Assembly (NCBI GenBank): GCA_964252035.1
Contig: OZ176207.1
Origin: Podarcis erhardii
Taxonomy: Eukaryota
Length of the DNA stretch: 64,000 nt
Direction: 5' to 3' (one strand)
This document shows positions 2,747 to 62,661 of the stretch, in pieces (within the stretch, counting starts at the first letter, position 1; every line of letters begins with the position of its first letter). A program made the translations under genes and the position numbers. The notes beneath the pieces were generated by a model that was not told where the DNA came from, searched no databases, and worked only from the letters and a program-made list of their open reading frames with translations.

Positions 2747-4159
2747 GACAGTTTGCTTTAATGATATTCAACAATTAATTCAGAGCATTTAATCATAATT
2801 CAACCAAATATTTTTGGCTGGGTAGAGGTCTAGGCCTAATTGCACCACGCAACCATCCTCAATAACCACACCTACAGTTCCTGGAATTCATTGCTCAAGT
2901 AATTGCAAAAAGGTGGGGAAGGGGCTTTAATAAGATTCACAAATTCTACCCTCGACTCCTCCAAGTCCAGTCACATATTCCTTTTAAAAATGATAGTTAA
3001 AGGGGGCTTCCTGTAAATTGAGCAGTATTTGGATTGCTGGATGCTTTGGTGGGGATGTTAATGTCAAAAGAATGTGTTAGTTGCGCCCCAGCAGATGATA
3101 CAACCTATGTCCCCACCCTCCTGCACCCCCACACCTTTTGTTGTTGTTGCTGTCGGCACGATTCTGCATGAAGGCCTTCTACAAGTGCACATCAATATGC
3201 GGGGGATGCCAGTCAAGAGAAAAGTGTTTCTGCTACATGTGACTGTGATGGGGCCATTGGGATCAGGATTAGTCCACTTGGTGCCATCAACAGTTGTGCA
3301 TTTTTTCAGTGTGGAGGCAGGGTGTTCATATGTTGAAATGCACCACATCCTTTTCCATCATGTCCTTTTCCATCACAGGATTTATGCAACTAAAGACAAT
3401 CTTGATAATATCAGGAAAAGGGAAACGGATTCTGCATTGCATTCTAGTGCAGCCTGACTGTACTGAAAGGGAATTGCATTAAGGTATCTTTATTTAATTC
3501 ATTTATTTATTCTCCACAGTGTCCTGGGTTATGATGAAATAATGATTGAATTATTTTGTATCCATTTAATGTGGATATAACACATTAAATTTAGAAAAGA
3601 TGCCCCCTGCAAGCTCCTGCCTTAATATGAGACCTCAGCTTAACCCATTTGGTAAATGTAACTGATGTTAAACCTATGAAAGATAGCAACAATGGAAAGT
3701 AAGACATTGTATATCAGTTTATTATATCACAGAATTCACTCTGTAACAAATTCTCTAAACCACACAATCTTTCAGCTTTGCAATCCTTCATATTCATCTC
3801 TGTTGCTATTTTATGACTTACTGAGCACTTCAAATTCCTCTATGTCCTGCAATACTTTTTTTATATAGAAGAAAAGATTACTGAAGGGCTTTATCACTAA
3901 CCAAATCAAATTCAAAAGCTGAGTTATCATTCCCATAAGTTAGCAAGTTGCTCTTCCGTAGTTTAGAGACATTTATTTCATTTTTTGAGGATTGCACTCT
4001 CCCCAGTCACTTTTCAATTATATCAAGTTCTGAAGGACTGAAAATGTCCACTTATGAATGAAATGGAAATTTTAATCAGACATCTTTTTCTTCCCTTAAA
4101 GAGCTTGAATTAAGTGGCACGTTGCTTTTGAAAATATTGATGGTGCTCTTATTTATTTT

Positions 4160-29264: not shown

Positions 29265-29410
29265 NNNNNNNNNNNNNNNNNNNNNNNNNNNNNNNNNNNN
29301 NNNNNNNNNNNNNNNNNNNNNNNNNNNNNNNNNNNNNNNNNNNNNNNNNNNNNNNNNNNNNNNNNNNNNNNNNNNNNNNNNNNNNNNNNNNNNNNNNNNN
29401 NNNNNNNNNN
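29265..29410. other. Assembly gap (146 N)
   Basis: Direct reading. Confidence 1.
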
Positions 29411-31310
29411 NTTAGCCCCGACTTGCCTTGAGCTTTTTTTTCTTATTTCACAAACACAACTAAACGGAGATAGTTTAAACACTCTGCTGTTTCATCAATG
29501 CAATATGAGTGAAAGCTTAACAGGAGTTTTCTTTTAAAAGCACTGGAACAGGTCTTCACTAGAAATGTGATTGAGAAAGAAAATGAAAGGAATAGCAATT
29601 TGATTATTGATTTAACTGTGAATGAAGAAGGGAGAAAGATGAGGCTATTTTTTTCATGACTTGAAGTGAATTGTTCTACACAGCCAAATAAATATAAAAT
29701 GTGGAATGGACATAGCTTGGGGGGAGGGGCTGCTTCATCAAAGCTCTCTAGCTGTTGCCACCTGGACTAGGACCATGTAAAAATGTATTTTAGTTCTTGA
29801 ATAACTGCACTTAGTCCTAGTTAATTTTCAGCCCCAAGTGCTAGTGCTTATCTCTACCTGTGTAGGACTACTTTCTTCTACATAAAATTGCTCAGGCATT
29901 GAAGTAATCTTTGAAGGCCCTTCTCCAGGGGCCATTGCCTTCTGAGGGTACATAACAAAAATTTGGAAGAGGGCCTTCATAACCAACACTTCATCTGTGA
30001 AACGCCTCCCTCCCCATGAAAGATGCAGGTGGAGAAACAATGAATCCTGCCTGGGAAGGTTATCTAAAAGTTGTATACTTTTATACATAGCATTGTTTTA
30101 TATACTGTAAGATTATCTGGTCTGTGAATTGTTAGCTGTATGAGTTTTAAAGATTAGCAGTTCACCAGTAACTGAGTGTAAAAAATAAATTGCATAGGTG
30201 GCCTATAGTTGACAGCCTGCCATTAAACAGCAGAGCTGTTACAGATCCTAAGGAAGTGACTATTTGCCTTGAGAGGTTCACTGTTATGCCAAGTTGACAT
30301 TAGTGGCCATTTCTTTTCTGATGGGACAGTAGAATCCTAAAACAGTGGAGCAAAAGTCTATGGGGGAATATTCTCTCTTTGCTCATTGGCCACACTTAGA
30401 ACACATAATAAAAAGGTATTAAATAATACCTTTGCATAATAAAAAGGTAAAAAACAACACTGAGATGCTAAAGTGATCAAAATCAGAAGAAAGTGTAAGG
30501 AGTGAAGTTTCAAATGTAACTTTTAAATGAGGAAGAGAAAAATTGTACTTGCCCCTAAAGATACTTGGATATTAAGATTAGAAGAATAGCATTTTAAAAT
30601 TCTCTTGCCTAGAGTTGGTAAAAAATGATTTTTGTTGGCCCTTGTGAGGTTGCACACTCATCTTATTAGTTGCTGCCTCTGAAACTGATTGAAAGCGGTC
30701 ATTGCTGGACATCAAGAACTCTAGCTTACTTCAGAAAGCAGGAGCCAAAGAATGCCATCAGTTTAATCAGGAAATCATTACAAGGGAGTTAATAACAGTG
30801 TTGTTGCCAGTGAACAATGCCACGAATATTTATAGGGGTTTATTTCAAAGAGTAATTGAATGATGGAAGGGGAAAATACTACAAAGTCTTTTCTTGCCTC
30901 CACTTTTCCTGCTGAACTCGTTGGCAGAGATAAAAAGTGACCAAAGGAGTTGGTAGAAGTAGAGGACATTTTGTGATTTATATGTTGGCCTCACAAACTT
31001 TGGAACTGGGCAACCACCAGCTCCAGCACTGATATTATAATGCCAAGGTTTTGACAAGGTGTAAACAAAGGAAGAGAAGGTTGAGTGAGGAGCAAAGGTT
31101 TGGGGCAAGTTGTGAGGGGAAAATGGTTTTTGTGAGGCGAATGGTTCTTGGGATGAAGTGTAAAAGGAGGGGATAGGGTTAAGTGTAAAGTGAAGGGGTT
31201 GGCAAATTGGCTGGATTGGAGAACAGTGTGAACTGGAGTGAAGCTCCTAGTATTGGAATAACACTAATGGCCACTTCTGCATCATTTCAGATTATATTCT
31301 ATGTTTGTAT

Positions 31311-43858: not shown

Positions 43859-44332
43859 CATCTCAATGACCTAAACTCCAGCTATTTATCAGGATAGTAT
43901 CACTGTTTTTTTTGTTTTTTTTTAAAGAGCACATGGTGTCCAGGCTCAAAATTCACTATACCTACTGATAATAAAAAACAAATTCTAATACTGTAAAACA
44001 TTGCGTGGACAGGCGGAATCCCCAGATCCCGAGTGGTCCCCCCGTCATGTGGAATAACGACTCTAGACAACGTGCTATGGGATTAAATTGGCCACAACTT
44101 TATTAAATTTCAAATGTGGGTAGACCTTGGCTCAGGCATTGGGCGTTCTCCCTCCCTAGTCCCCAGCCGGGGACCTAGGGAGCATCAGGGTTATCCAGTG
44201 TGTGTGTGGGGGAATGGGCCGGCTCTGGAGAACATATGTTCAAGCAGAGATAGCCGCCCCCGTTACGCCGCCGCAGGGGAGAGCAATGACGACCTTTCGG
44301 CGTACGGCCAAAGCCTCCCTTCAAAAACCCCT

Positions 44333-44882
44333 TTAACGGGGAACCCTGGTATCGCCGCCGCAAAAAGGAAGATGGACTAAAGGATTCCGCCCAAGGCCTG
44401 ATACCGCCACCCGAGACCGCAAAGATTGCGGTCTTGCCGCCAAGACTACCCACATCTGAAAATCCCCTTTGCCATCCTCCAACCAGTCAATCAGGCCATG
44501 CCTGATGTCGCTCAGCCAACGCTCGTTACCACATTCTGATAGGTGCACGCCATCGGGCCGAAATAGCTCCTTCAGACCAGAAAATCATGATGTTGGGGTG
44601 AGCGGCATGTACGCTTTCCAGGTCCGCGATCGCTGTTTTGATCAGAATTATGCTTTTTTGCACGACCAAGTCATTTTCGCCAAGGTGGAGCACAACCGCG
44701 TTTGGCGGATGGCGGAATGCAAGTTCATGACGCAACCAAGGGAGCAGGGCATCCCATCGCATTCCACGTTGGCCGAACCAGGAAATGGAGATCTTTGGCT
44801 GCAGACCCAGATGTTCTCCGTCTGGACCAGTAGTGGCATGGATGGCCGCCCAATGCACTATGCTGTGGCCGAAGATCCACAC
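44333..44882 (-). pseudogene. SGNH/GDSL-family hydrolase ORF of the element (frameshifting internal deletion near 44565)
   Basis: Block I WIFGHS, block II FGQRG and block III VVLHLGENDL lie in ORF 44526-44882. Block V LFRPDGVHLS lies in another frame (Asp codon 44554-44552). Confidence 0.85.
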
Positions 44883-44912
44883 ATGTTTGGGGGTTGAGCC
44901 TGAAAGAAAGGA

Positions 44913-45821
44913 TTATATGGTATATGTCAGTGTCTGCTGGTTGTTTCGAATATAGCCTTTGAAGGCAGCTGAACGCCACCGCCCCATTGTTTTTATGTGT
45001 TCTGCTGGGAGGCCGCTCGCAGCTGCCGAGGTTGCTGCACCGATACGAAAGGAATGCCCGGAAAATTGTGCCGGGTCGCCTCCACAAACATGGATGGCCT
45101 TATGCAATATTGAGACAAATTGGCAACGGGTCATGGGGTGGCCTGATGCATGAATGAGGAGGGGGCCTGGTCCCGGAGGACGTACCTTCAGGAATTTGCG
45201 TGTGTCCGCGACAGGGCATGGTCCAGTGTGTGGGGAGGAGGCTAGACTTAGTGTGGAACCCCTACCTAGTTGATCGGTTTTTGGAGGCTTGGATTTTGAC
45301 TTGTATCATGCGCCTGTCAAGGTTGATATCAGCCACAGACAAGCCCCTGCGATGAGGTGACAATGTGCCCCCTATGCACTCCCCGATACGGAGCGCACCA
45401 AAGAAGGATAGGGAGAAGGCTGCCCTGAAGAGCCTGACCTCATAGTTGGACCAGCAAATACTGGGGAGCGCATCCCAGATCAGCCGGAGGATCTCTATGG
45501 TTACTGGCCTCCTCTTATCTGGAATGGGCGGGTGGGAGCGACGCCACCCTGCAATAAGCTTCCTTATGTGGAAAGTGTTACAGGGGTCTGGGAGCCAAAA
45601 CAGTTGCTTAAGTAGGAGATAGCGGCCTTGTGCAGGCTGATGGTTTTAAGGGCCATGCCCCTACGCTTTAGGTGAACCAAATATTTTAGAACATCAGACT
45701 CCTTAGCTGTACGCCTGCGACGTAAGCCAAACTTATCTCTGAACCCCTCGGATTGGGACCATGCTCTGGTGTAGGACCGCAGCGTTGATGGTGCAAGGGC
45801 GCTCAGAACTCCTGCTGTCAC
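44913..45821 (-). pseudogene. Tyrosine recombinase, frameshifted
   Basis: N-terminal LAPSTLRSY...YLVHL; manual translation of the middle gives FFGALRIGE (catalytic Arg) and SKTDQ after a frameshift; C-terminal GHSFRIGAAT...MGRWRSAAFKGYIR. Confidence 0.92.
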
Positions 45822-47159
45822 TTCTCCCGTCCAATTTCCCAGAGGTCCTCCGGAAAGGCTTCTGGGAGTTGATCGGCCTCGGGTGCTAGGTCGCGAAAGC
45901 GCTCCATCTGAAAGCGAGACAGGGCATCTGCAATGTCGTTATTGAGGCCCGGGATGAACCGCGCAGAAAAGGAGATGTTACCTTTCAGACATTCCAGCAC
46001 GAAGAGACGGAGCACGCGAATTACCCTGTTGGATTTTGCGGATTGCTTCGCAATGATTCTTACCACCGCCTGGTTGTCCGACCAGAAGCACACCCTGGTG
46101 TCCTTGAGGAGGTGCCCCCAAACACGGAGAGCCACTAGGATTGGGAAAAACTCAAGGAAAGTTTAATCACGTGTAATGCCCTCCTCATGCCAAGATGTCG
46201 GCCAAGGCTGTGCGCACCAGTGACCCCTGAAGTAAGCGCCGAAGCCAAAGCGACCAGAGGCGTCAGAGTGCACCTGTAGCTGTTCCTTAGGCAGCAGGCA
46301 AGATTGTCCAGGGGCAGGCGAGAGGTTTGGCTGACAGAATCCAGTTCAATACCCAGATATGAGATGACGGTGGTTGGACCTTCGGTCTTGTCCGCTGCCA
46401 ACGGGATGCCCAATTCAGCTGCCAGCTGAATGAAGCATGCCAGCACCCTAGCGCACGCGTCTGAGCCCGCTGGCAGGACGTAATGGGAAATGCGGTGGGA
46501 CCCTGACCTGCGTTTCATGGCCCATTCCACGAATGCGCTGAAGGTTTCAAATGCAGCGCATGCGATGGAACAGCCCATGGGCATAGCTTTGTCAAAGTAC
46601 CATTGGTCCTGGAATTTGAAACCTAGCAACCAGAAGTCCCTGGGGTGGACTGGTAACAGACGGAAGGCTGATTCGATGTCACATTTGCCATGAGCGTGCC
46701 CGGGCCACACTCCCTAACCAGCTTGATTGCCTGATCAAGAGATGCATATTTGACTGAGCATTGTTCTTGGGGAATGGCATCATTTACTGACCCACCCTTT
46801 GGGTAAGAAAGGTTATGTATTAATCGAAACTCGCCTGGGGCCTTCTTAGGTACAATACCTAGTGGAGAAACTATGAGGTTAGGAAATGGAGGTTCTGTGA
46901 AGGGACCTGCCACTCGCCCCAGCAAGCATTCTTTGGTAATCTTCTTCTCGGCAATGTGTGGCATATCTCGGACAGACTTTTGGTTGGGGGGATTGGTGCA
47001 TGAGGGGGTGCCTACCACTGGGATGCGGAAGCCTTCCTTAAAGCCCTCCTCAATGTATTTTGCTGCCTCTTTCTTGGGGTACTGGTGTAACAAAGGCAGC
47101 ATTGCTGATAGAGATATGGGTGAGGGGGCTAGGGAAAGGAGAGCACTATTTGCGGGCAT
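45818..47159 (-). pseudogene. Reverse transcriptase + RNase H, disrupted
   Basis: LIVSPLGIVPKKAPGEFRLIHNLSYP; frameshift at ~46685; KCDIESAFRLLPVHP...AMPMGC; YLGIELDS; RNase H HSDAS, LEFFPI, FWSDNQAVV, NDIADALSR. The YxDD motif is absent (SHY-VLPAGS at ~46480), and the RT-RH connection appears deleted at ~46295. Confidence 0.92.
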
Positions 47160-48662
47160 TGTTTTTGCTTTGCTGAGCGCCAGAGGAGCCTGTAGAGGCT
47201 CCGGCCTTTCTTTTGTCTTGAGATGTGCCTGCGCCTGATCCGCGGGAGCCTCGAAAAAGCTTCTTCCCCCGAAAACATTTCATGGTGGGGTGAGATCCAC
47301 TACAGCGCTCGCATTCATGAGCAAATCGACATTTTTCTCTGAAGCAGGAGCCATTGTTATACTCCCAGCAAGATCTCTTGGGGGCCTTGGATTGATATTT
47401 GGACTGTTTCACATTGTCGGGCCCATTCTTGAAGAACGGGGAAACCAACTCAGACCACACGTCATCATCTTTGATATCCCATCTAACTGTGTCGTCCTCT
47501 GCCGCCCGCTCCCTGAATGCCTGGTCATAGGCGAGTGCCGCCTGCCCCCCAGACATGGCTTAGCCTTTAGGATGATGAGTAGGTAGTTGGTCAGGTACCA
47601 ACCCGTATCAGGGTAACTAGTGACTATAATACCCATATAAGTGGTGTATGCAGTGAGCCAATTACGAAAGGTACGCTCAACACTCACTTTTTTATCTTTT
47701 TTCCTCTGCTTGGCGGATTTAGATTTTAGGGCTGTCGAAGCGGCAGGGGATAGCAGATCAAACAAATCCACGAACTCCCCATTAAGGATGCGTTCCCGCA
47801 ACTTCTCGCGCAGGCGAATGCCTGGGGGCTGGTCGGTTCTTTTGTGGTTGGATTTCCTAATTCTACCTCTGGAGTCAATGCCCTCCTCCCCGCATGGCGC
47901 GATAGCACCATGTTCACGCCTGTGCCTCCGGTTGCGGCGCCGCCAGACCCAGTGCGGCAGCCCTGGGGCGTCGGGGCCTGTAACCCAATAGCCTTTGATG
48001 CTCCCCCCCCGTTCACTATCAGTGGAGCTGGACCTACCTGAAGAACTAGATGATCCAGACGAGTCCCTCTTGGACTTGTGGCCCCTCCTCCTGGATTTGT
48101 GGTGTTTCCTCCCGCGATGACGCGATCTGCGCGACTCAGGGCTCTTGTCACTCTTGTACCTGTCAGAGGAGCTGGAACGGGGGGACCTACCTCTGCGCCT
48201 GGTGGATGTGGATGATGAATGTGACCCACCTTCCTGAGCATGGCGGTCAGAGGAGCTGCTACTGCGCCCTCGCTTGCGGCCATGAGGTGACCCGGAGCTC
48301 CCTCTGCGCGAATCCCGCCGCTCCAGGCGGCGCCTCAGCCGGGCGATGGTCCTGTCCCTACTGTCTCCATGCACCGAGTGCGAGAGACTGCTACTAAGAG
48401 AGGAGCGGGTGGAGGAAGAGCTCTCTGTACGTCTCGGCTTGGCAGCCGACCCCCTGCCGGCGCGGCTTGCCAAGGCTAGTGGGCTTCTGGACCCAGAAGA
48501 CCCTCTAGGTGCCGCTGCCCTCTTGGGCTTGGGCTGCTCCCCCCTGGTTGCATGCGCCTTCCGCTGTCTGGTTGCCTGTCTCTGGGCAGGCTTGGTGGGC
48601 GCACCCCTTATGGTGCCCCTTCTGGTGCGGGGAGGGGAAGTAGCCTGACGCTTCGGAGGCAT
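47146..48662 (-). pseudogene. Gag-like ORF1 (Ser/Arg-rich N-half, C-terminal Cys/His finger), one frameshift at ~47557
   Basis: ORF 47409-48662 joins ORF 47146-47556 by a 1-nt shift (ILKAK / AMSGGQAALAYDQAFRERAA...RWD). C-terminal motif CWEYNNGSCFREKCRFAHECERCSGSHPTMKC. Confidence 0.85.
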
Positions 48663-49299
48663 GGTGTGGGGCTAATAGAGTGGGTATGCTAGGGAATCCG
48701 CTAGAAGGGGGGGCAATGATTGGCAGGAAATGCCTGCTAGTAATTCGCAAACACAGGCTAATGATAAAGGTAAGGGTACAATTAATGGGAGGGGAGAGAT
48801 AAGGCAAGAACTGAGTCGCAGCTGGAATCGCTACTGAAGGCTGCAAGATAAAACAAGCAATAGTTTAGAAAATCACTGCACAGGTTTCAGTTGGGGTCCA
48901 TGGGTCTCCCCTCGTTGATAATGAGCGTGATGCCTGCTGTCCGCTGTACCTGCTGGCAAGCCATGATGGTGAGATGTGAAACCAATACGTACCTAATGAG
49001 GCCATAGGTGTGCCTGAGGAGCACCGAGGCATGACAGCCTCCATGCAGCCAGATCCAGGGTGGCCACTGCCATGCGGCCACCGATACAATGGCTGCCACC
49101 ATGCGGTCGCGATTGAAATGGCTGCAGACTTGGAGCCACCACTAAGCAGGCCCTGCCACGGTTTATGGGGGTGTGGGGCAAGCAGAGGCACACACTGTCC
49201 CCCGTGGCCATCTGGGGGGGAGGTGGGTATGCCCGCCAGCTGCAGAGGTCCCCCCGCCACCCAGGGGAGGTTCCAGGGTCGCCAGAGGCCTGGTGTAGG

Positions 49300-50040
49300 C
49301 CGTGGGAGGTGGCAGGGCCTCCCTGTGGCCTAAAAGGCTGGCCAAAGGGGAGGGGAGGCCACGCGGTGTGGCCCGCGGCCCCCCCATGGAATGTGGGGGC
49401 GGCAGGAAGGCCCCTGCCGCCCAGGGGAGGCTCCAAAGCCGCTGTAGGCCCAACTAGTCGCACAATTTGGCAGAGCCTTTCTGAGGCCCAGCTAGGCCTC
49501 CCGGAGCCAGGGGTGGGCACGTGCCAGCCCGTGCCCCCCCAGCGATCACGGGTGTGGCGGGAAGGCCCCTGCCGCCCAGGAGAGGCTCCGGGGCAGGCGG
49601 AGGCCCGACTAGGCCACAGAACGCGGCAAGGCCTCTTCGAGGCCCAGCCAGGCCTCCCTGAGGCCCAGCCAAGCCTCCGGAGCCAGGGGAGGCGGCGCGG
49701 CCCGCAGCCCCCCTGGCGATCGCGGGGGTGGCGGGAAGGCCCCTGCCGCCCCGGGGAGGCTCCAGGGCCGCCGGAGGCCCGACTAGGCCGCGAAACGCGG
49801 CAAAGCCTCACTGAGGCCGAGCCAGGCCTCCTCGAGGCCCAGCCAGGCCTCCGGAGCCGGGGGAGGCCTCGTGGCATGGCCAGCGGCCCCCCGGCGATCG
49901 CGGGGGGCGGCGGGAAGGCCTCCGCCGCCCAGGGGAGGCTCCAGGGCTGGGGGACACGAAGGAGCCCCCCTGAGGCCCAGTAAGGCCTCACAAAATGCGG
50001 CGGGCCTCCCTGCAGCCTAAAAAGGCCGCTTGGAGGCCAC
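49300..50040. repeat. GC-rich degenerate tandem array (~155-180 bp units) in the 5' region of the Ngaro element
   Basis: The anchor gaaggcc(cc/tc)...gccgccc.gg.gaggctcc recurs at 49406, 49561, 49735 and 49914. Confidence 0.85.
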
Positions 50041-51689
50041 CGAGGCCCTGGGGGGTGACTGGGGAGCCCCCTTCCACCACCCACCGCACCCCAGGGCCGC
50101 CAGGCCTGGCGGGGGAAGGGAAGGGCCGCGCGTGGCGTTGCCTCCCCCCCCGCGGCCCACACGCCCCCGCAGGCACGGGGGGCAGCTAGAGGGGCCCCCG
50201 TGCCACCACCCAACACCCCGGGGCATCAGGGCCCGCCTAGGGAAAAGGATCCCCTTTTGAAAGGGTATCCTGAAGTCCATTACCCCCCCCCCCGCTATCC
50301 CTTGGGATCCCTGTAGGGGGGGGGCAAAGGCCCCAGGCTTACCTTTAGGAGCGAGGAAGTCCAGCGACGTCCTTCCTGGAGAATCTCTGGAGCCAAGTGA
50401 GGATTACCAATTAAGATTCACCCTCTATTGTGTGGGCAGGTAATCCCTCCCCCTACCTGGCCTGGTTTCCCTGGCAACACTTCCCCCAGGTGGGATTGGA
50501 CAACTCACTGGGGTAGGCGGGGACCTCCAGGTATCCCACCTGAGGGAAGGCAAAGCCTATGCTGATGGGGCCACTCCAGATCCAGGGCTGCGCGCGTCCA
50601 CGCAAAGGGCGCCCCCCCGTTTTAAGTGGGGAGCGGTCATTTCCTAACAGGAAATTTACACTTTACTTTCTGGTACTTGGGTATCTAGCCTTGGCTGCTG
50701 CCAACATATCAAGAGCATATTTAGTTCCCCACCTATAGTATCAAAAGATCCAAGTGGTTTACATAAAAACAATAAAAGGACAACAATGATATTCAATAGA
50801 ATTCCCTAAAAACTGGATAAAAACAGAATAAAGCTATATGTAGTGGAACTGTCTTTTAGTAGAAATTTGGCATTTACTTTCTGGCAGCTCTTGAAGCCTT
50901 TTTTTTTTTAAATGCCTACAGGCCTACGCAGTCATTTAAAATGTCCCTTGAGCCATTTTCACAATTGCTTCGCGTTCCTTTAAACGTTCCTGTGCTGTTG
51001 TACCCCCACCCTCATGTTTGGGGAGAGGGCAGTTTCTAAACACTTTGATAAATAAATAATAGATCAAATAAAACTGAACCGTGTACAAATCAGGGAACTG
51101 CAAACAGGGTCTCTTGGGAAGATTTTAAAGATCATCATGGTCTGTACTCCAGGGAAGTGGTTTACTATGCGATACCGGCTGCAAGCGGTTTAGGTTGACC
51201 TGAATCAATTTGTAGCAATTCATGTTGATCTGGGGTGCAAAACAATATCTAAAAAAGACAAAAGAGTTTCCACATTGTTGTGGTTATTAATAACACTACA
51301 GAAGGATAACACACAGATGGGAAGAGGGAGAGGCAGAGAGCTGGACTTCGCTTATTGAAAGCTCTAGCTTCAAATCCAGGGCAAGACTAGCCACTAAGCC
51401 TGCTCTGGGTGGGCGGCAGTTGCAGCACTTTGTGGTCTGCCTTCCATTCCAGGGAAACAAGGAGTTTCATCTTTGAGGCTTGCCTTGTAATTCCCTGGCC
51501 AGCTGCCTCACGGCCAGATTAGCCTGCCAATAAACTAAATTTGAATGGCTGGTAGAGGGTGGAGCTTGGCCAGTAGACCTGAGAGAGGATGTTCTCATTC
51601 TGGTCAGCCAGGCAAGTTACAGCCGGGCACCTAACACCCAGCACCCTCCAACCACAGGGCTTTATGGGAGAGATAGAAAGCTTTGTTCT

Positions 51690-54179: not shown

Positions 54180-54588
54180 TGTCAGGGAACTGCCATCAGG
54201 GCCGGAGGGAGAGAGCGTCCCGGGATGGGGAGAGGCAACCCATCTTCTGGGGAAGAGAATCAGCGTAGCACCAGTGGAGAAGGGGGGCAGATGGGGGAAT
54301 CGGCGAGGCGGTCCCATGACTCCTTGCCAGGGACCAGCGGGGAGAGTAAGGGTCCTCCGCTGCCTACACCCTCCTTGCGCAGAAGGCTTCCGCGCAGGGA
54401 GAGTAGGAGGAGACTAGGCGTCAAAGAGCTTCTTTGCTGGAAGAAGTTCAAGAAATGCCCACTGACGGATTCTGCCAGCGATTGAGACAGCCACGGGTGA
54501 GTGGTTGTCCAGACAGAAAAGGTTCACTCAGGCAACCCAGCCAGGTGTTGCACTGGTTTACGCACGAGCAACCCCTAGAACCACTACA
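54180..54588. mobile_element. Solo LTR (409 bp)
   Basis: TGT...ACA ends; perfect 5-bp TSD gtacc (54175-54179, 54589-54593); homologous to 56111-56522. Confidence 0.88.
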
Positions 54589-56110: not shown

Positions 56111-56522
56111 TGTCAGGGAACTGACATCAGAAGGAGAGGTGGAGGCAAGGCTCCACAGCGATGCAGGAGAGGGGACCAGCAGGGGGGAAGGTATTCAGCG
56201 TAACACCGGTAGGGAAGGGAGGGAAATGGAGGATTCGGAGAGAGGTCTCCAAGACCCTTCACCCGAGACTAGTGGGGAGAGCGCGGACACGCCTTTGCCT
56301 TCCCCTTACTTGCGCAGACGAGTTCCACGCAGGGAGAGTAGGAGGAGACTTGGCGTCAAACAGCTCTTATGCTGGAAGAGGTTCAAGAAACGCCCACTGA
56401 CGGATTCTGCAAGTGACTGACCGGCCACGGAGTGTGAGCTGTCAGCCAAAGCATGGTTGGCCAGGCAATCTAACCAAAACGGAAGGCAACTTACGCACAA
56501 GTAACCCCTTACAACCATTACA
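56111..56522. mobile_element. Solo LTR (412 bp), same family as 54180-54588
   Basis: TGT...ACA ends; perfect 5-bp TSD tacct (56106-56110, 56523-56527). Confidence 0.88.
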
Positions 56523-58408: not shown

Positions 58409-58454
58409 CTAGGCGACGTTTCGACGAGGTCTCACTCGTCATCTTCAGGCTGGT
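58409..58454 (-). ncRNA. Second copy of the hammerhead motif (left PLE arm)
   Basis: Exact reverse complement of 61525-61570 (core at 58415-58448). Confidence 0.7.
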
Positions 58455-60546
58455 GCTTTCGGCTTCTTGTTACTGGAACAGAGCAGGATCTCAGTGTTTG
58501 AGTTCCTATAAATACTGTAGAGGGGGTGTGGTGTATAGCCTCCAATGTTCTGGGCAGAGAGGAAGTTCCCAGGCTAGTGTGCCTTTTCTTCTTTTGTTCC
58601 TTAATTACTTGAGAGATATCTTGAGTGATTTCTTGAGTGATATCCTGAGTACCACTTAGGTGGGTCATTAGGTGTGGATTAGTTGCTAAAGTCTTTGTGT
58701 CTTGACCTCTTGAACTTTGTGAAGAGTTTTCCTGAGAAGATGGCTGTACTGTACTTAGTTGTGCTCTGGCTTGGCTTCGTGTATAGGGGCGAGCTGTGGT
58801 TTTGTGGCTTGTGTCAGCCAGATCTGTGTAGGGATTGCAGGGGGGTGCAGCATCCGGAGGTGCTACCATGGATTGGCTACTGGATGGTGTCTGTAATTCA
58901 TCTGTGGAGAGGGTCTGGGTTTGGGTCTGGTGTGGTTGATTGGTGTTGGCGTTCTGTGTGCCTCTGGATCTGGTGTCAGTTTTTGTGGGGAGGGCTAATT
59001 TCCAGATGTCTGGCAAGCGGGATGTGTCGTCACGCTTGTTCATGTTGTGAGGGTGTTTCTCTATCTCGATGGCTTCCATGATTATTCTCTTGTGGTGATG
59101 TTCCGTGTTAAAGAGCAATTTGGAATCTGCAAAATTAATTTCGTGTCCTGTTTCTTTCATGTGTTGGAAAAGAGAGGAAGTTTTTTCTTCTTTTTTGACG
59201 GCATTCTTGTGTTCTGCGATACGTGCATTTATTCGTCTGTTTGTTTGTCCAATGTACGTGGCTGGGCAGACTTTGCAGGGTATTTCATAGATCCCTTGGT
59301 TTTCCAACTGGATTTTATCCTTGGGGTTTCTGAGGATATTGGCTATTTTTTGGTTGGTGCAAAAGGCTGTTTTGATATTGTGTTTATGGAGGATTTTGCT
59401 AATTTTATCTGTAGTGCCCTTGATATAAGGAAGGAGGGCCATGCCATTGTTTTCTTCTGTGTCTTGGTTTTTGGGGGGTGTTTCCTTTTGGATTAGCTTC
59501 GTAATCCTGTTTTGCTGGTATCCATTGGCAATTAACACGTTTGAGAGATTCTGTAACTCAGTTGTCAAGTGGTCTTTGTCAGCCAGGCGTTTGGTTCTGG
59601 AGATGAGAGTCTTGGCTACGGAGTTTATTTGTGCAGGGTGGTGGTGTGATTGTGCATGTAAGTAGCGGTTGGTGTGTGTTTTTTTCCGGTAGATAGTGTG
59701 TCCTAGGGAGCCATCAGGTTTTTTGTAGATTAGGACGTCAAGGAAGGGAAGTTGGTTGTTGGCTTCTATTTCCATAGTGAATTGTATTTTGGGGTGTAAG
59801 TTGTTGAGATGTGTGAGGAAGCTATCCAGTTTTTCCTTCCCGTGTGGCCAAATTACAAAGGTGTCGTCAACATATCTGAGCCAAAGTTTGGGTTTGTGTT
59901 CTGACTTGTCTAAAGCATTGGTTTCAAAGTGTTCCATGTACAGGTTTGCGATGACCGGTGAGAGGGGTGATCCCATAGGTGCTCCTTCTATCTGTTTGTA
60001 TCTTTGTCCATTGTGGATGAAGTACGTGTTGGTTAGGCAGTGGTTGGTCAGGTCCAAGATGTATTCGGGGGGATTGTATTTGTTTTGAATAGCTGTCAAG
60101 GCTTCATTAATGGGCACTTGTGTGAAGAGAGATACAACATCGAAGCTCACAAGTAGGTCATTAGGATGTAGGTTTTGCTTCTTTATTGTTTCTATGAACT
60201 GGAAGGAGTTTGGTACGTGTGAAGAGATGGATTCTGCATAGGGCTGAAGTTGCTTGGCGAGAAATTTAGCGAGATTTTGTAGAGGTGAGCCTATGGAGCT
60301 GACTATTGGTCTGAGTGGTGTTCCTTCTTTGTGTATCTTGGGGAGGCCGTAGAGTTTGGGGCATCTGGATGATTTTTCTCTGGGGATGATTCTTAGCTGG
60401 ATTTCTTCACTGATAGGAGAGGCTTTTATTTTGGATTTGGTGGTTTTTTCCAGGTAGGTGGTGGGATCTGTTTTTATAGGTTTGTAGGCAGGATCTTGGA
60501 GTAGATTTGATAGTTTTGCTTGGTAGTCCGATGTGTTCATCACCAC
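58432..60546 (-). CDS. PLE reverse transcriptase - GIY-YIG endonuclease (704 aa open, N-terminally truncated)
   Basis: PKLYGLPKIHK, FDVVSLFT, GAPMGSPLSPVIANLYME, RYVDDTF, GIYEIPCKVCPATYIGQT. No internal stops. It begins at VVMN, inside the usual N-terminal region. Confidence 0.93.
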   Translation of the reverse strand: MVMNTSDYQAKLSNLLQDPAYKPIKTDPTTYLEKTTKSKIKASPISEEIQLRIIPREKSSRCPKLYGLPKIHKEGTPLRPIVSSIGSPLQNLAKFLAKQLQPYAESISSHVPNSFQFIETIKKQNLHPNDLLVSFDVVSLFTQVPINEALTAIQNKYNPPEYILDLTNHCLTNTYFIHNGQRYKQIEGAPMGSPLSPVIANLYMEHFETNALDKSEHKPKLWLRYVDDTFVIWPHGKEKLDSFLTHLNNLHPKIQFTMEIEANNQLPFLDVLIYKKPDGSLGHTIYRKKTHTNRYLHAQSHHHPAQINSVAKTLISRTKRLADKDHLTTELQNLSNVLIANGYQQNRITKLIQKETPPKNQDTEENNGMALLPYIKGTTDKISKILHKHNIKTAFCTNQKIANILRNPKDKIQLENQGIYEIPCKVCPATYIGQTNRRINARIAEHKNAVKKEEKTSSLFQHMKETGHEINFADSKLLFNTEHHHKRIIMEAIEIEKHPHNMNKRDDTSRLPDIWKLALPTKTDTRSRGTQNANTNQPHQTQTQTLSTDELQTPSSSQSMVAPPDAAPPCNPYTDLADTSHKTTARPYTRSQARAQLSTVQPSSQENSSQSSRGQDTKTLATNPHLMTHLSGTQDITQEITQDISQVIKEQKKKRHTSLGTSSLPRTLEAIHHTPSTVFIGTQTLRSCSVPVTRSRKHQPEDDE

Positions 60547-61547
60547 TTCCCTATATCAAGGGCACTACAGATAAAATTAGCAAAATCCTCCATAAACACA
60601 ATATCAAAACAGCCTTTTGCACCAACCAAAAAATAGCCAATATCCTCAGAAACCCCAAGGATAAAATCCAGTTGGAAAACCAAGGGATCTATGAAATACC
60701 CTGCAAAGTCTGCCCAGCCACGTACATTGGACAAACAAACAGACGAATAAATGCACGTATCGCAGAACACAAGAATGCCGTCAAAAAAGAAGAAAAAACT
60801 TCCTCTCTTTTCCAACACATGAAAGAAACAGGACACGAAATTAATTTTGCAGATTCCAAATTGCTCTTTAACACGGAACATCACCACAAGAGAATAATCA
60901 TGGAAGCCATCGAGATAGAGAAACACCCTCACAACATGAACAAGCGTGACGACACATCCCGCTTGCCAGACATCTGGAAATTAGCCCTCCCCACAAAAAC
61001 TGACACCAGATCCAGAGGCACACAGAACGCCAACACCAATCAACCACACCAGACCCAAACCCAGACCCTCTCCACAGATGAATTACAGACACCATCCAGT
61101 AGCCAATCCATGGTAGCACCTCCGGATGCTGCACCCCCCTGCAATCCCTACACAGATCTGGCTGACACAAGCCACAAAACCACAGCTCGCCCCTATACAC
61201 GAAGCCAAGCCAGAGCACAACTAAGTACAGTACAGCCATCTTCTCAGGAAAACTCTTCACAAAGTTCAAGAGGTCAAGACACAAAGACTTTAGCAACTAA
61301 TCCACACCTAATGACCCACCTAAGTGGTACTCAGGATATCACTCAAGAAATCACTCAAGATATCTCTCAAGTAATTAAGGAACAAAAGAAGAAAAGGCAC
61401 ACTAGCCTGGGAACTTCCTCTCTGCCCAGAACATTGGAGGCTATACACCACACCCCCTCTACAGTATTTATAGGAACTCAAACACTGAGATCCTGCTCTG
61501 TTCCAGTAACAAGAAGCCGAAAGCACCAGCCTGAAGATGACGAGTGA
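60546..61547 (+). pseudogene. Inverted duplicate of the PLE ORF 3' part (linker + GIY-YIG + C-terminal tail)
   Basis: The translation from LPYIKG to QPEDDE is identical to the minus-strand ORF. The first codons of track ORF 60507 are antisense RT sequence, not a true start. Confidence 0.9.
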
Positions 61548-61570
61548 GACCTCGTCGAAACGTCGCCTAG
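61525..61570 (+). ncRNA. Minimal type I hammerhead ribozyme motif in the PLE pseudo-LTR
   Basis: CTGAAGA (61531-61537), extra T, stem II GACGAG-tgagac-CTCGTC (61539-61556), GAAA (61557-61560), then CGTC. Stem III is minimal and palindromic; stem I is weak. Confidence 0.7.
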
Positions 61571-62661
61571 ACACCCCAACTTTTACACGGGAAGACACCC
61601 GAGGACACCAAAACCTGCATTCCTGTACCCGTGAAAATCTACGAAAGCAAATATATATATATATATATATATATGTCCCCACTGAAAAACTACATATACC
61701 AGGATCCTTCAGATGTATCTCTAGAATTCTTTGTTGTCATAATTTTCCTGACAAGCTGTGCTGTGCTTCCCTAGCAGAAGGAGCAGAAGGTCTGAAACAG
61801 CCAGCATCTCTTTTTGATTTCTCCAAGTGTTATCTTCAAGCAACTTTTATGCAAAATTCACACTGAGAAGCTGTCATTTTTAGCTCAGCTTTTGGGGTGA
61901 ATTCATAAATGTTTTCTGCTTCACCTGGCATGACAGGTGCCCACGATTAATAAATGAAAAGAATGGTCAGTTGTGTTGATTAATATGGGAATCAATTCTC
62001 TCCCGCCCCCCCTTTGTACAGCAGCAGATGAATAGATTTATTTTTCTAAACCACAGTGTCAGTTTCCCCCCTCTTTGGGCAGCCTAGCAGTTCATGGCTG
62101 GTAAACACCAGTATAACATTGTTTTAATCCCATGTTCTCTGAATGGTAAATTAAGAAGCACCTCTGTAGAAACAAGGCAGTGTAGCAGCATCAACAGACA
62201 CTCCCTCTTGTCAACACAGGAACTCATACTCTAAAAAGAGGTTTCCACACCACACCCTCCCAGTGGTGGAGCTTCATGCTCTGGCACCGGGAGGCGGAGA
62301 GCAGGCAGGGGCAGGACTGACATGCATCCTGAGGGCGTGGCACACATCCTGGGGGCATGGCACGCCACCTGCAGGGGCGTGGCACCCAGTGTGGGCGGGG
62401 GCAGCTGCGATGGCACCCCACCAGGATCGCGCTGCTCCTCTTCCTCTGCCAGTGTACCCTCCTACAGGAGCTCCAATCCACCCTTGATAAGCGCCTGCTC
62501 TGTTGACCCCACCCTTCTTCCCATTCTGATTTCACTGGTGCAAATGCGTAAGCATAGCAATGGCACATTTTAAAACTCAATCAGTGCAGGGAAGATTTAC
62601 CAGTGATCTTATCTCTGCCCACCAGACATAACTTGTGATAAGATTATACAACAAACCTGGC

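Follow-up and report, generated by a model that had tools for sequence, protein, structure and literature searches.

Organization of the Element

The window, which is the whole stretch of 64,000 nt from Podarcis erhardii that was analyzed (assembly GCA_964252035.1, contig OZ176207.1), carries on its minus strand a degenerate Ngaro-like tyrosine-recombinase retrotransposon at 44001-50607, with ends inferred from an inverted match. The element is composed of gag, a reverse transcriptase/ribonuclease H (RT/RNase H), a tyrosine recombinase (YR), and an SGNH esterase, and all of its features are given here on the minus strand. The gag-like open reading frame (ORF1, 47146-48662) starts with the ATG at 48662, has a frameshift near 47560, and contains a conserved core from about codon 280 and a CCHC-type knuckle near its end. 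The RT/RNase H region (45818-47126) has frameshifts near 46710 and 46240 and has lost about 75 codons. The recombinase (44913-45905) is split over three frames with its first in-frame ATG at 45656, inside the SAM-like domain. The esterase (44453-44899) is an exon without a start of its own, which has lost about 46 codons and shifts frame near 44570. The copy is dead, having several frameshifts and deletions across its ORFs. Comparison of this locus with its relatives suggests that Ngaro elements would express the esterase by splicing the N-terminal part of gag (GagN) onto the esterase exon, forming a GagN-esterase fusion, a reading to which we assign a probability of about 0.8.

The Esterase Exon and Its Acceptor

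The acceptor ATCCTTTCTTTCAG|G (44900-44913) ends at 44900, directly before the esterase frame, as the sequence-only reading of this DNA had placed it. It is in phase 1, lies nine codons 5' of the Gly of the GHS nucleophile motif, and has a CTGAC branch-point-type motif about 30 nt upstream (44926-44930). It ranks 3/421 among the AG dinucleotides, where ranks are taken over all GT (n = 275) and AG (n = 421) in 50607-44001 scored with vertebrate splice frequency tables. The hydrolase ATG that the same reading had put near 44882 is not in the hydrolase frame. The ATG in question, with its A at 44884, 15 nt after the acceptor, opens an out-of-frame ORF of 8 codons (44858-44884) reading MCGSSATA-stop. 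The first in-frame ATG of the esterase is at 44762, 36 codons past the Gly of the GHS motif.

The closest solved sequence is the ZfL2-1 esterase (4C1B, E 2.6e-12), in which a GDS motif lines up with the GHS of this element and the catalytic Ser is reported to be needed for activity (PMC3905857). A start at 44762 would skip the catalytic Ser together with strands 1-2 and helix 1 of the fold, as judged on the predicted structure of the esterase from L001, an intact distant element described below (predicted local distance difference test score 94, best matches GDSL/SGNH hydrolases). Further upstream, none of the 14 ATGs within 1.15 kb upstream of the leader donor at 50342 stays open to that donor. 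Since the esterase lacks an in-frame ATG ahead of the catalytic Ser, it cannot be obtained from a non-coding leader joined to 44900, and because the acceptor is in phase 1, a coding upstream exon is required. The earlier proposal of a leader exon spliced straight to the hydrolase thus fails on the missing start, a donor within gag being favored. Its broader claim that the last ORF is reached by splicing to 44900 is very likely correct, and it is the route from a non-coding leader that does not stand. Nor is the product env-like, the prediction being a soluble SGNH fold and not a membrane glycoprotein.

The closest esterase relatives among the matches listed are both lacertid, P0002 from Podarcis lilfordi (91% identical) and P0001 from Zootoca vivipara (80%), and no further close relatives of the window's lizard family occur among those matches. 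P0002 starts at the same late Met and has no ATG before the catalytic Ser. In P0001 a host exon is spliced onto the related esterase at the same place.

Phase-1 Donors in gag

An internal gag donor, CAG|GTAGGT (48032-48040, rank 2/275), is in phase 1 and is the preferred partner of 44900. In the proposed model it closes a GagN coding exon of 208 codons plus 1 nt (48038-48662), and it sits 84 codons 5' of the ILNGEF motif in the gag core. GagN is basic (28% Lys + Arg), Ser-rich (25%), and of low complexity. Each of three good gag donors, 48229, 48190, and 48037, is in phase 1 and leads into the esterase frame without a stop; 48229 and 48190 are weaker, and 48037 is the most likely gag partner of 44900 in the window.

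The Same Layout in a Distant Intact Element

A single-protein scan of genome contigs gave one locus from 78 candidate stretches, L001 (JBNKJW010000143.1). It is filed in a bacterial (Bacteroidales) metagenome-assembled genome, although its content is of eukaryote type, and is probably a contamination of the bacterial bin. L001, an intact Ngaro element, has a 5367-nt unit with a 141-nt terminal overlap, four intact ORFs, and 36% GC, and its RT is 41% identical to that of the window. The contig (1-5508) is either a free circle or a collapsed repeat and shows no split repeats.

The best donor of L001 (rank 1/273) is in phase 1 and follows codon 61 of gag, ahead of a core located at about codon 89. 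The esterase acceptor at 3635 is T-rich, in phase 1 (rank 9/276), and placed seven codons before the Gly of the catalytic motif; the join between the two is open for 256 codons. The first Met of the L001 esterase is residue 127 of 202. Conservation of the acceptors among families had been named as a check by the sequence-only reading; the esterase acceptor is kept in L001, and the leader intron ahead of gag has no clear equivalent there.

Protein Models Containing the Esterase

The esterase has 884 relatives at E 0.001, and the counts given here cover the 150 listed. Dropping 11 of these (10 with several esterase domains and 1 with no clean match) leaves 139 single-esterase models, in which the residues before the motif Gly number at least 60 in 98, 12-59 in 29, and 11 or fewer in 12. 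The upstream parts of the 98 long models contain the gag core in 1, RT/RNase H/YR in 12, and host Pfam domains in 6, and 51 of the remaining 79 have at least 72% disorder-type residues. In P0051, P0022, and P0015 a basic block and a Ser run end at a Gly that precedes the motif Gly by nine codons, which is the context and spacing predicted for the 48037-44900 join. An amino acid signature test for the acceptor in the 29 short models was loose, and its outcome is not counted; by eye, about 10 of these models show a Phe/Leu/Ser-rich run whose end fits YAG|G. Look-ups in the Atlas gave only eukaryotic clusters, without names.

The N-terminal part of P0136 used as a query gives 15 matches among 1311 candidates, all of them Lissotriton helveticus RefSeq models. 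In 14 of these newt models one N-terminal region is joined to the esterase at the same point. The remaining model, P0163, continues from that point into the recombinase, with 251 of 262 upstream residues identical to P0164. The residue at the join is Val in P0163 and Gly in the esterase forms, as predicted for a shared phase-1 G. The newt junction is fixed even though the N termini are only 40-44% identical.

Three further groups of models were noted. P0072, P0077, P0086, and P0108 (also P0053, P0102, P0062, and P0063) are long cold-shock/CSDE1-type proteins ending in a related SGNH domain with a common entry sequence, possibly a captured and conserved esterase exon. P0003-P0006, P0008, P0016, P0025, P0041, and P0070 have two to six tandem SGNH domains of the esterase type. 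In P0001, P0071, and P0141, host exons (vomeronasal receptor, PUB, and UEV) are joined to the esterase exon, reflecting exon trapping or a prediction artifact.

Weighing of the Alternatives

The splice sites and their phases, the missing esterase ATG, the same layout in L001, and the matching gene-model fusions are direct observations. That the GagN-esterase splice occurs in cells is what we infer from sequence and gene models, and a number of points weigh against it. The window copy is broken, and a GagN-esterase model of this lizard family was not found in a search for longer relatives (1 match among 35 candidates). By score alone the motifs do not exceed chance. Among 300 dinucleotide block shuffles an equal-scoring site appears in 18% for the leader donor (50343), 65% for 44900, and 100% for the acceptor before gag (48841), and the plus strand holds a slightly better donor at 48770. 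A filter set after the data had been seen (score of at least 8, AG-free zone of at least 15 nt, and at least 8 T in the tract) leaves 2 of the 421 acceptors, which are 44900 and 48841. Phase-1 donor look-alikes are common in an RS-rich ORF through its GGT-AGG (Gly-Arg) codons. The minus strand of L001 carries an equally good donor, so that position and phase are what count; for 44900 itself the evidence of reality is position, phase, and conservation, not score. The gene models are automated predictions, and prediction software is prone to attach an orphan exon to an upstream ORF that has an ATG. All 15 models from the newt represent one species and three or four lineages, 10 of them being at least 93% identical to the query. 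The newt N-terminal exon is presumably the beginning of gag, but none of the 15 models holds the gag core, and it is in the window and L001 alone that this identity is seen. The YR and pol acceptors of the window are not conserved in L001, where YR has its own ATG.

If these motifs had arisen by chance or through codon use, and if the fusions were prediction artifacts with the esterase made otherwise, the chance-level scores would be accounted for, as would the position of a further acceptor at 45908 within the SRFQ codons of RNase H. The models also join host exons (V2R, UEV, PUB, and cold-shock), implying that predictors use the acceptor freely. This explanation is nonetheless quite improbable, since donor and acceptor occupy the same positions, in the same phase, in an element of 36% GC whose RT is only 41% identical, the newt junction is constant across N termini of 40-44% identity, and intact start-less ORFs need some route to expression.

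An env-like arrangement, with the leader donor 50342 spliced straight to 44900 and the esterase translated from its own ATG, would employ the best donor in the element, and 12 of the 139 listed relatives have a starting Met no more than 11 residues from the motif Gly, a count that also tells against the gag splice. Several of these near-Gly Met starts look like alternative-start calls, and some families may own an ATG. In L001 an acceptor lies one base before the YR ATG, and leader-type splicing may serve YR there. For the window family and L001 the arrangement is already contradicted. The nearby ATG is out of frame and opens only 8 codons, none of the 14 upstream ATGs is open to the donor, the first in-frame ATG loses the catalytic Ser and three core elements, and the first Met in L001 is residue 127. 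It is accordingly regarded as highly improbable.

The esterase might instead be made without gag splicing, as a YR-esterase fusion (by readthrough, in-frame fusion, or a donor in YR) or from a non-AUG start. In the window copy the esterase frame comes directly after the YR stop (44915-44913), which is in frame with it, in P0128 the YR end is fused in frame to the esterase, YR parts are upstream in 8 of the 98 long listed models, and a phase-1 donor look-alike is present within YR at 45265. Set against these are the differing YR and esterase frames of L001, with a stop preceding the esterase, and the varied points at which YR-bearing models are joined, the low-complexity N-terminal class being far larger among the listed relatives. 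TAA is, in addition, a poor readthrough codon. A YR-esterase or non-AUG route is thus considered improbable, and the GagN-esterase splice is retained.

Proposed Mechanism and Relation to Known Systems

In the GagN-esterase model the unspliced RNA would be the genome. A phase-1 donor ending the basic, disordered GagN before the gag core would be joined to the phase-1 acceptor 44900, and translation from the gag ATG would produce a GagN-SGNH esterase fusion. The gag-started mRNAs would also supply full Gag, pol by a +1 frameshift, and, in vertebrate families, a GagN-recombinase. The basic GagN tail may bind RNA or co-assemble with Gag, with the esterase tying the particle to anionic membranes. 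This role in linking RNA or Gag to membranes is suggested by analogy with ZfL2-1 ORF1p, described as a coiled coil and an arginine-rich motif followed by an SGNH esterase that binds anionic liposomes (PMC3905857). The proposed fusion has the same plan of a basic region plus esterase as ZfL2-1 ORF1p (4C1B). The latter, however, is one continuous ORF in a LINE, whereas GagN-esterase would be assembled through splicing, in a YR element whose products also include a separate full Gag.

In retroviruses env is the 3'-most ORF, reached by splicing out gag-pol, and the unspliced RNA is the genome; most env genes start at an ATG of their own, and in avian sarcoma-leukosis viruses env keeps a few gag codons. 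The Ngaro model resembles the env mRNA in that the 3'-most ORF is reached by splicing, and an acceptor after pol lies directly before the 3' ORF in both the window (44900) and L001 (3635). It differs in having a donor 60-200+ codons into gag, a whole Gag region that is shared, and a soluble esterase as product, and in neither the window nor L001 does the esterase have an in-frame ATG, ahead of the catalytic Ser, for a leader donor to reach. A broader scheme for animal Ngaro elements, which is tentative and possible rather than probable, is a complex-retrovirus-like program with an array-free, ATG-less leader and a shared GagN serving as a particle-loading tag on the esterase and the recombinase. 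GagN-esterase would there be the spliced, convergent equivalent of the LINE esterase ORF1p, anchoring the particle on membranes, and the same acceptor would have fed host genes in fish and reptiles.

Xenopus DIRS-53_XT and DIRS-54_XT and the newt element Bou1 are described as having gag, RT/RH, and YR followed by an SGNH hydrolase of unproven function (bioRxiv 10.1101/2021.08.05.455354), and germline expression is reported for Bou1 (PMC13003380). The window has the same ORF order, but its copy is broken and has no split direct repeats. The excerpts of these accounts give overlapping ORFs and quote frameshifting for YR, with no mention of splicing of element RNA, and in those of PMC7192593 and PMC6681497 the hydrolase is named but no way in which it is expressed is given. 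No report of spliced Ngaro RNA was found in the literature searched, which lacked Goodwin and Poulter 2004 and Poulter and Butler 2015, and an earlier mention is possible. Elsewhere, a conserved alternative splice is reported to set the protein output of a Ty1/Copia retrotransposon (shGAG of Arabidopsis EVD, PMC5580714). As described there, the Copia splice gives a short Gag-only RNA with early termination, whereas the Ngaro splice would append downstream ORFs to GagN. The LAP2alpha exons of TMPO and ZNF451, derived from DIRS1, are coding exons of a YR retrotransposon reported as captured by the host via alternative splicing (PMC4495291). As portrayed there they are host co-option of gag and not the element's own expression, and some esterase fusions may be similar captures. 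The indirect support for the GagN-esterase model is strong, and the model would add a variant to the ways in which splicing controls retroelement expression.

The printed guess for how Ngaro expresses its recombinase is frameshifting. If the model is correct, the esterase as actually made is a Gag fusion that shares its plan with the membrane-binding ORF1p of L2/CR1-type LINEs and comes about by another route, and a role in particle assembly on membranes becomes testable. A large group of "uncharacterized" models of low complexity plus SGNH in lizards, amphibians, and invertebrates would likewise be accounted for, and shortened annotations such as P0002 would be corrected. The model names exact junctions, which existing RNA sequencing data are able to confirm or reject.

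Expression of the Recombinase and pol

A phase-1 acceptor (45908-45921, rank 9/421) lies where the YR frame starts, within the SRFQ codons of RNase H. The join in P0163 is in register with this acceptor, the ST motif being at +41 in both. Of 29 RNase H residues, 15 can be read in the other frame, compared with 3-8 in shifted registers (2 of 10,000 shuffles). In the register test the block before an indel peaks at shift 0, and an ungapped span across the indel peaks at shift -2. Splicing of GagN to the recombinase through the same donor and acceptor 45908 is mildly favored for vertebrate families. Ribosomal frameshifting from the RT/RH frame, which is the proposal of Poulter and Butler 2015 as quoted in PMC13003380, is a less probable but substantial alternative for the recombinase. 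It agrees with the presence of the GagN-YR join in only 1 of the 15 newt models and with L001, which has no phase-1 acceptor of any strength at YR and has its own YR ATG. Against it stand the exact register of the P0163 join with 45908, at a donor common to the P0164 esterase join, and a window YR frame without an ATG before the SAM-like domain. The L001 acceptor one base before the YR ATG (2680-2697, rank 10/276) is a good one, out of phase with the gag donor, and a leader-spliced YR mRNA may make use of it.

At the start of pol a phase-1 acceptor-like site (47129-47143, rank 5/421) is not conserved in L001. Two TTT-CGN codon pairs (47274 and 47256) fall in the gag/pol overlap of the window (47251-47274), and one is found at the overlap in L001 (1027), pol being in the +1 frame in both. 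TTT-CGN is a +1 frameshift motif, which makes these pairs candidate sites, and pol is more probably made by a +1 frameshift than by splicing. A rule of one exon spliced to all three ORFs through the phase-1 acceptors 47129, 45908, and 44900 was considered and dropped for pol and limited to vertebrates for YR, because the phase-1 acceptors of L001 rank poorly at both pol (ranks 160 and 174/276) and YR (ranks 149-206).

The Putative Leader Intron Ahead of gag

The donor AAG|GTAAGC (50337-50345), with its exon end at 50343 as had been reported, is the best donor in the element (rank 1/275) and would close a putative non-coding first exon without ATG (50343-50607, 5' end inferred). The acceptor TTGCTTGTTTTATCTTGCAG also ends where it had been placed, at 48841 (48841-48860, rank 7/421). 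It has a T-rich tract, a 33-nt AG-free zone, and no consensus branch motif, and the leader from there to the gag ATG (48663-48840) is free of ATGs. The putative leader intron between them (48841-50342) is 1502 nt long with 69% GC, folds at -60 kcal per 100 nt, and contains a GC-rich array and 12 ATGs, two of them in a strong context by the Kozak rule. After its removal 265 + 178 nt without ATG are left, both being ATG-free in 0.7% of 20,000 base shuffles. Acceptor look-alikes nearer to donor 50342 are found at 50311, 50237, and 50106. Removal of the intron 50342-48841 would probably give an ATG-free leader to all gag-started mRNAs. The suggestion in the sequence-only reading that a leader exon is spliced to gag, removing the array, is hence plausible in that it disposes of the 12 ATGs and less secure in finding no clear counterpart in L001. 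The array itself (49356-49965) consists of units of about 174 nt with internal 21-nt subrepeats, and the L001 leader has an 84-nt tandem pair.

Ends and Classification of the Element

The 5' arm (50567-50605) is an imperfect inverted match of about 40 nt to the 3' arm (44001-44040), with a score reached in 1 of 500 shuffles, and an AATAAA polyadenylation signal is located at 44099-44104. The end-to-end match (50567-50605/44001-44040) could conceivably provide recombinase binding arms at a circle junction.

A tyrosine recombinase is present instead of a DDE integrase. Its broken pieces match Pfam Phage_integrase (E 4e-4) and a SAM-like domain (E 5e-4) below the gathering cut-offs, and it is 34% identical to the intact L001 YR (E 2e-23). 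The Ngaro gene order of gag, RT/RNase H, and YR with overlapping frames is found, as is the trait of animal members, an SGNH hydrolase ORF 3' of YR. No methyltransferase after RNase H is seen among the Pfam matches of 10 ORF pieces, the YR frame overlapping the RNase H end, as is usual for Ngaro; a methyltransferase domain and a LAP2alpha-type gag, which are traits of vertebrate DIRS1-like elements, are both absent among the Pfam matches of these pieces. Of the DIRS1-like termini (inverted repeats of about 120 bp and an internal complementary region) only the imperfect match of about 40 nt is present, and no internal complementary region is seen. Split direct repeats of the form A1-ORFs-B1-A2-B2 are missing, no repeat being found between the element ends, and the element is for this reason called Ngaro-like and not filed as a Ngaro member. 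Loss of the split repeats is common in degenerate copies, and DIRS-54_XT is likewise reported without them (bioRxiv 10.1101/2021.08.05.455354).

Other Features of the Window

No second copy of the element was found within the 64-kb window. An assembly gap of 147 N is present at 29265-29411. A direct repeat of 237 nt (54249-54485 and 56184-56420), 77% identical and 1.9 kb apart, has each unit within a short basic ORF. At 58432-61736 an ORF of 707 codons with RT and GIY-YIG-like regions, which we take to be of the Penelope type, is adjoined by an inverted partial copy.

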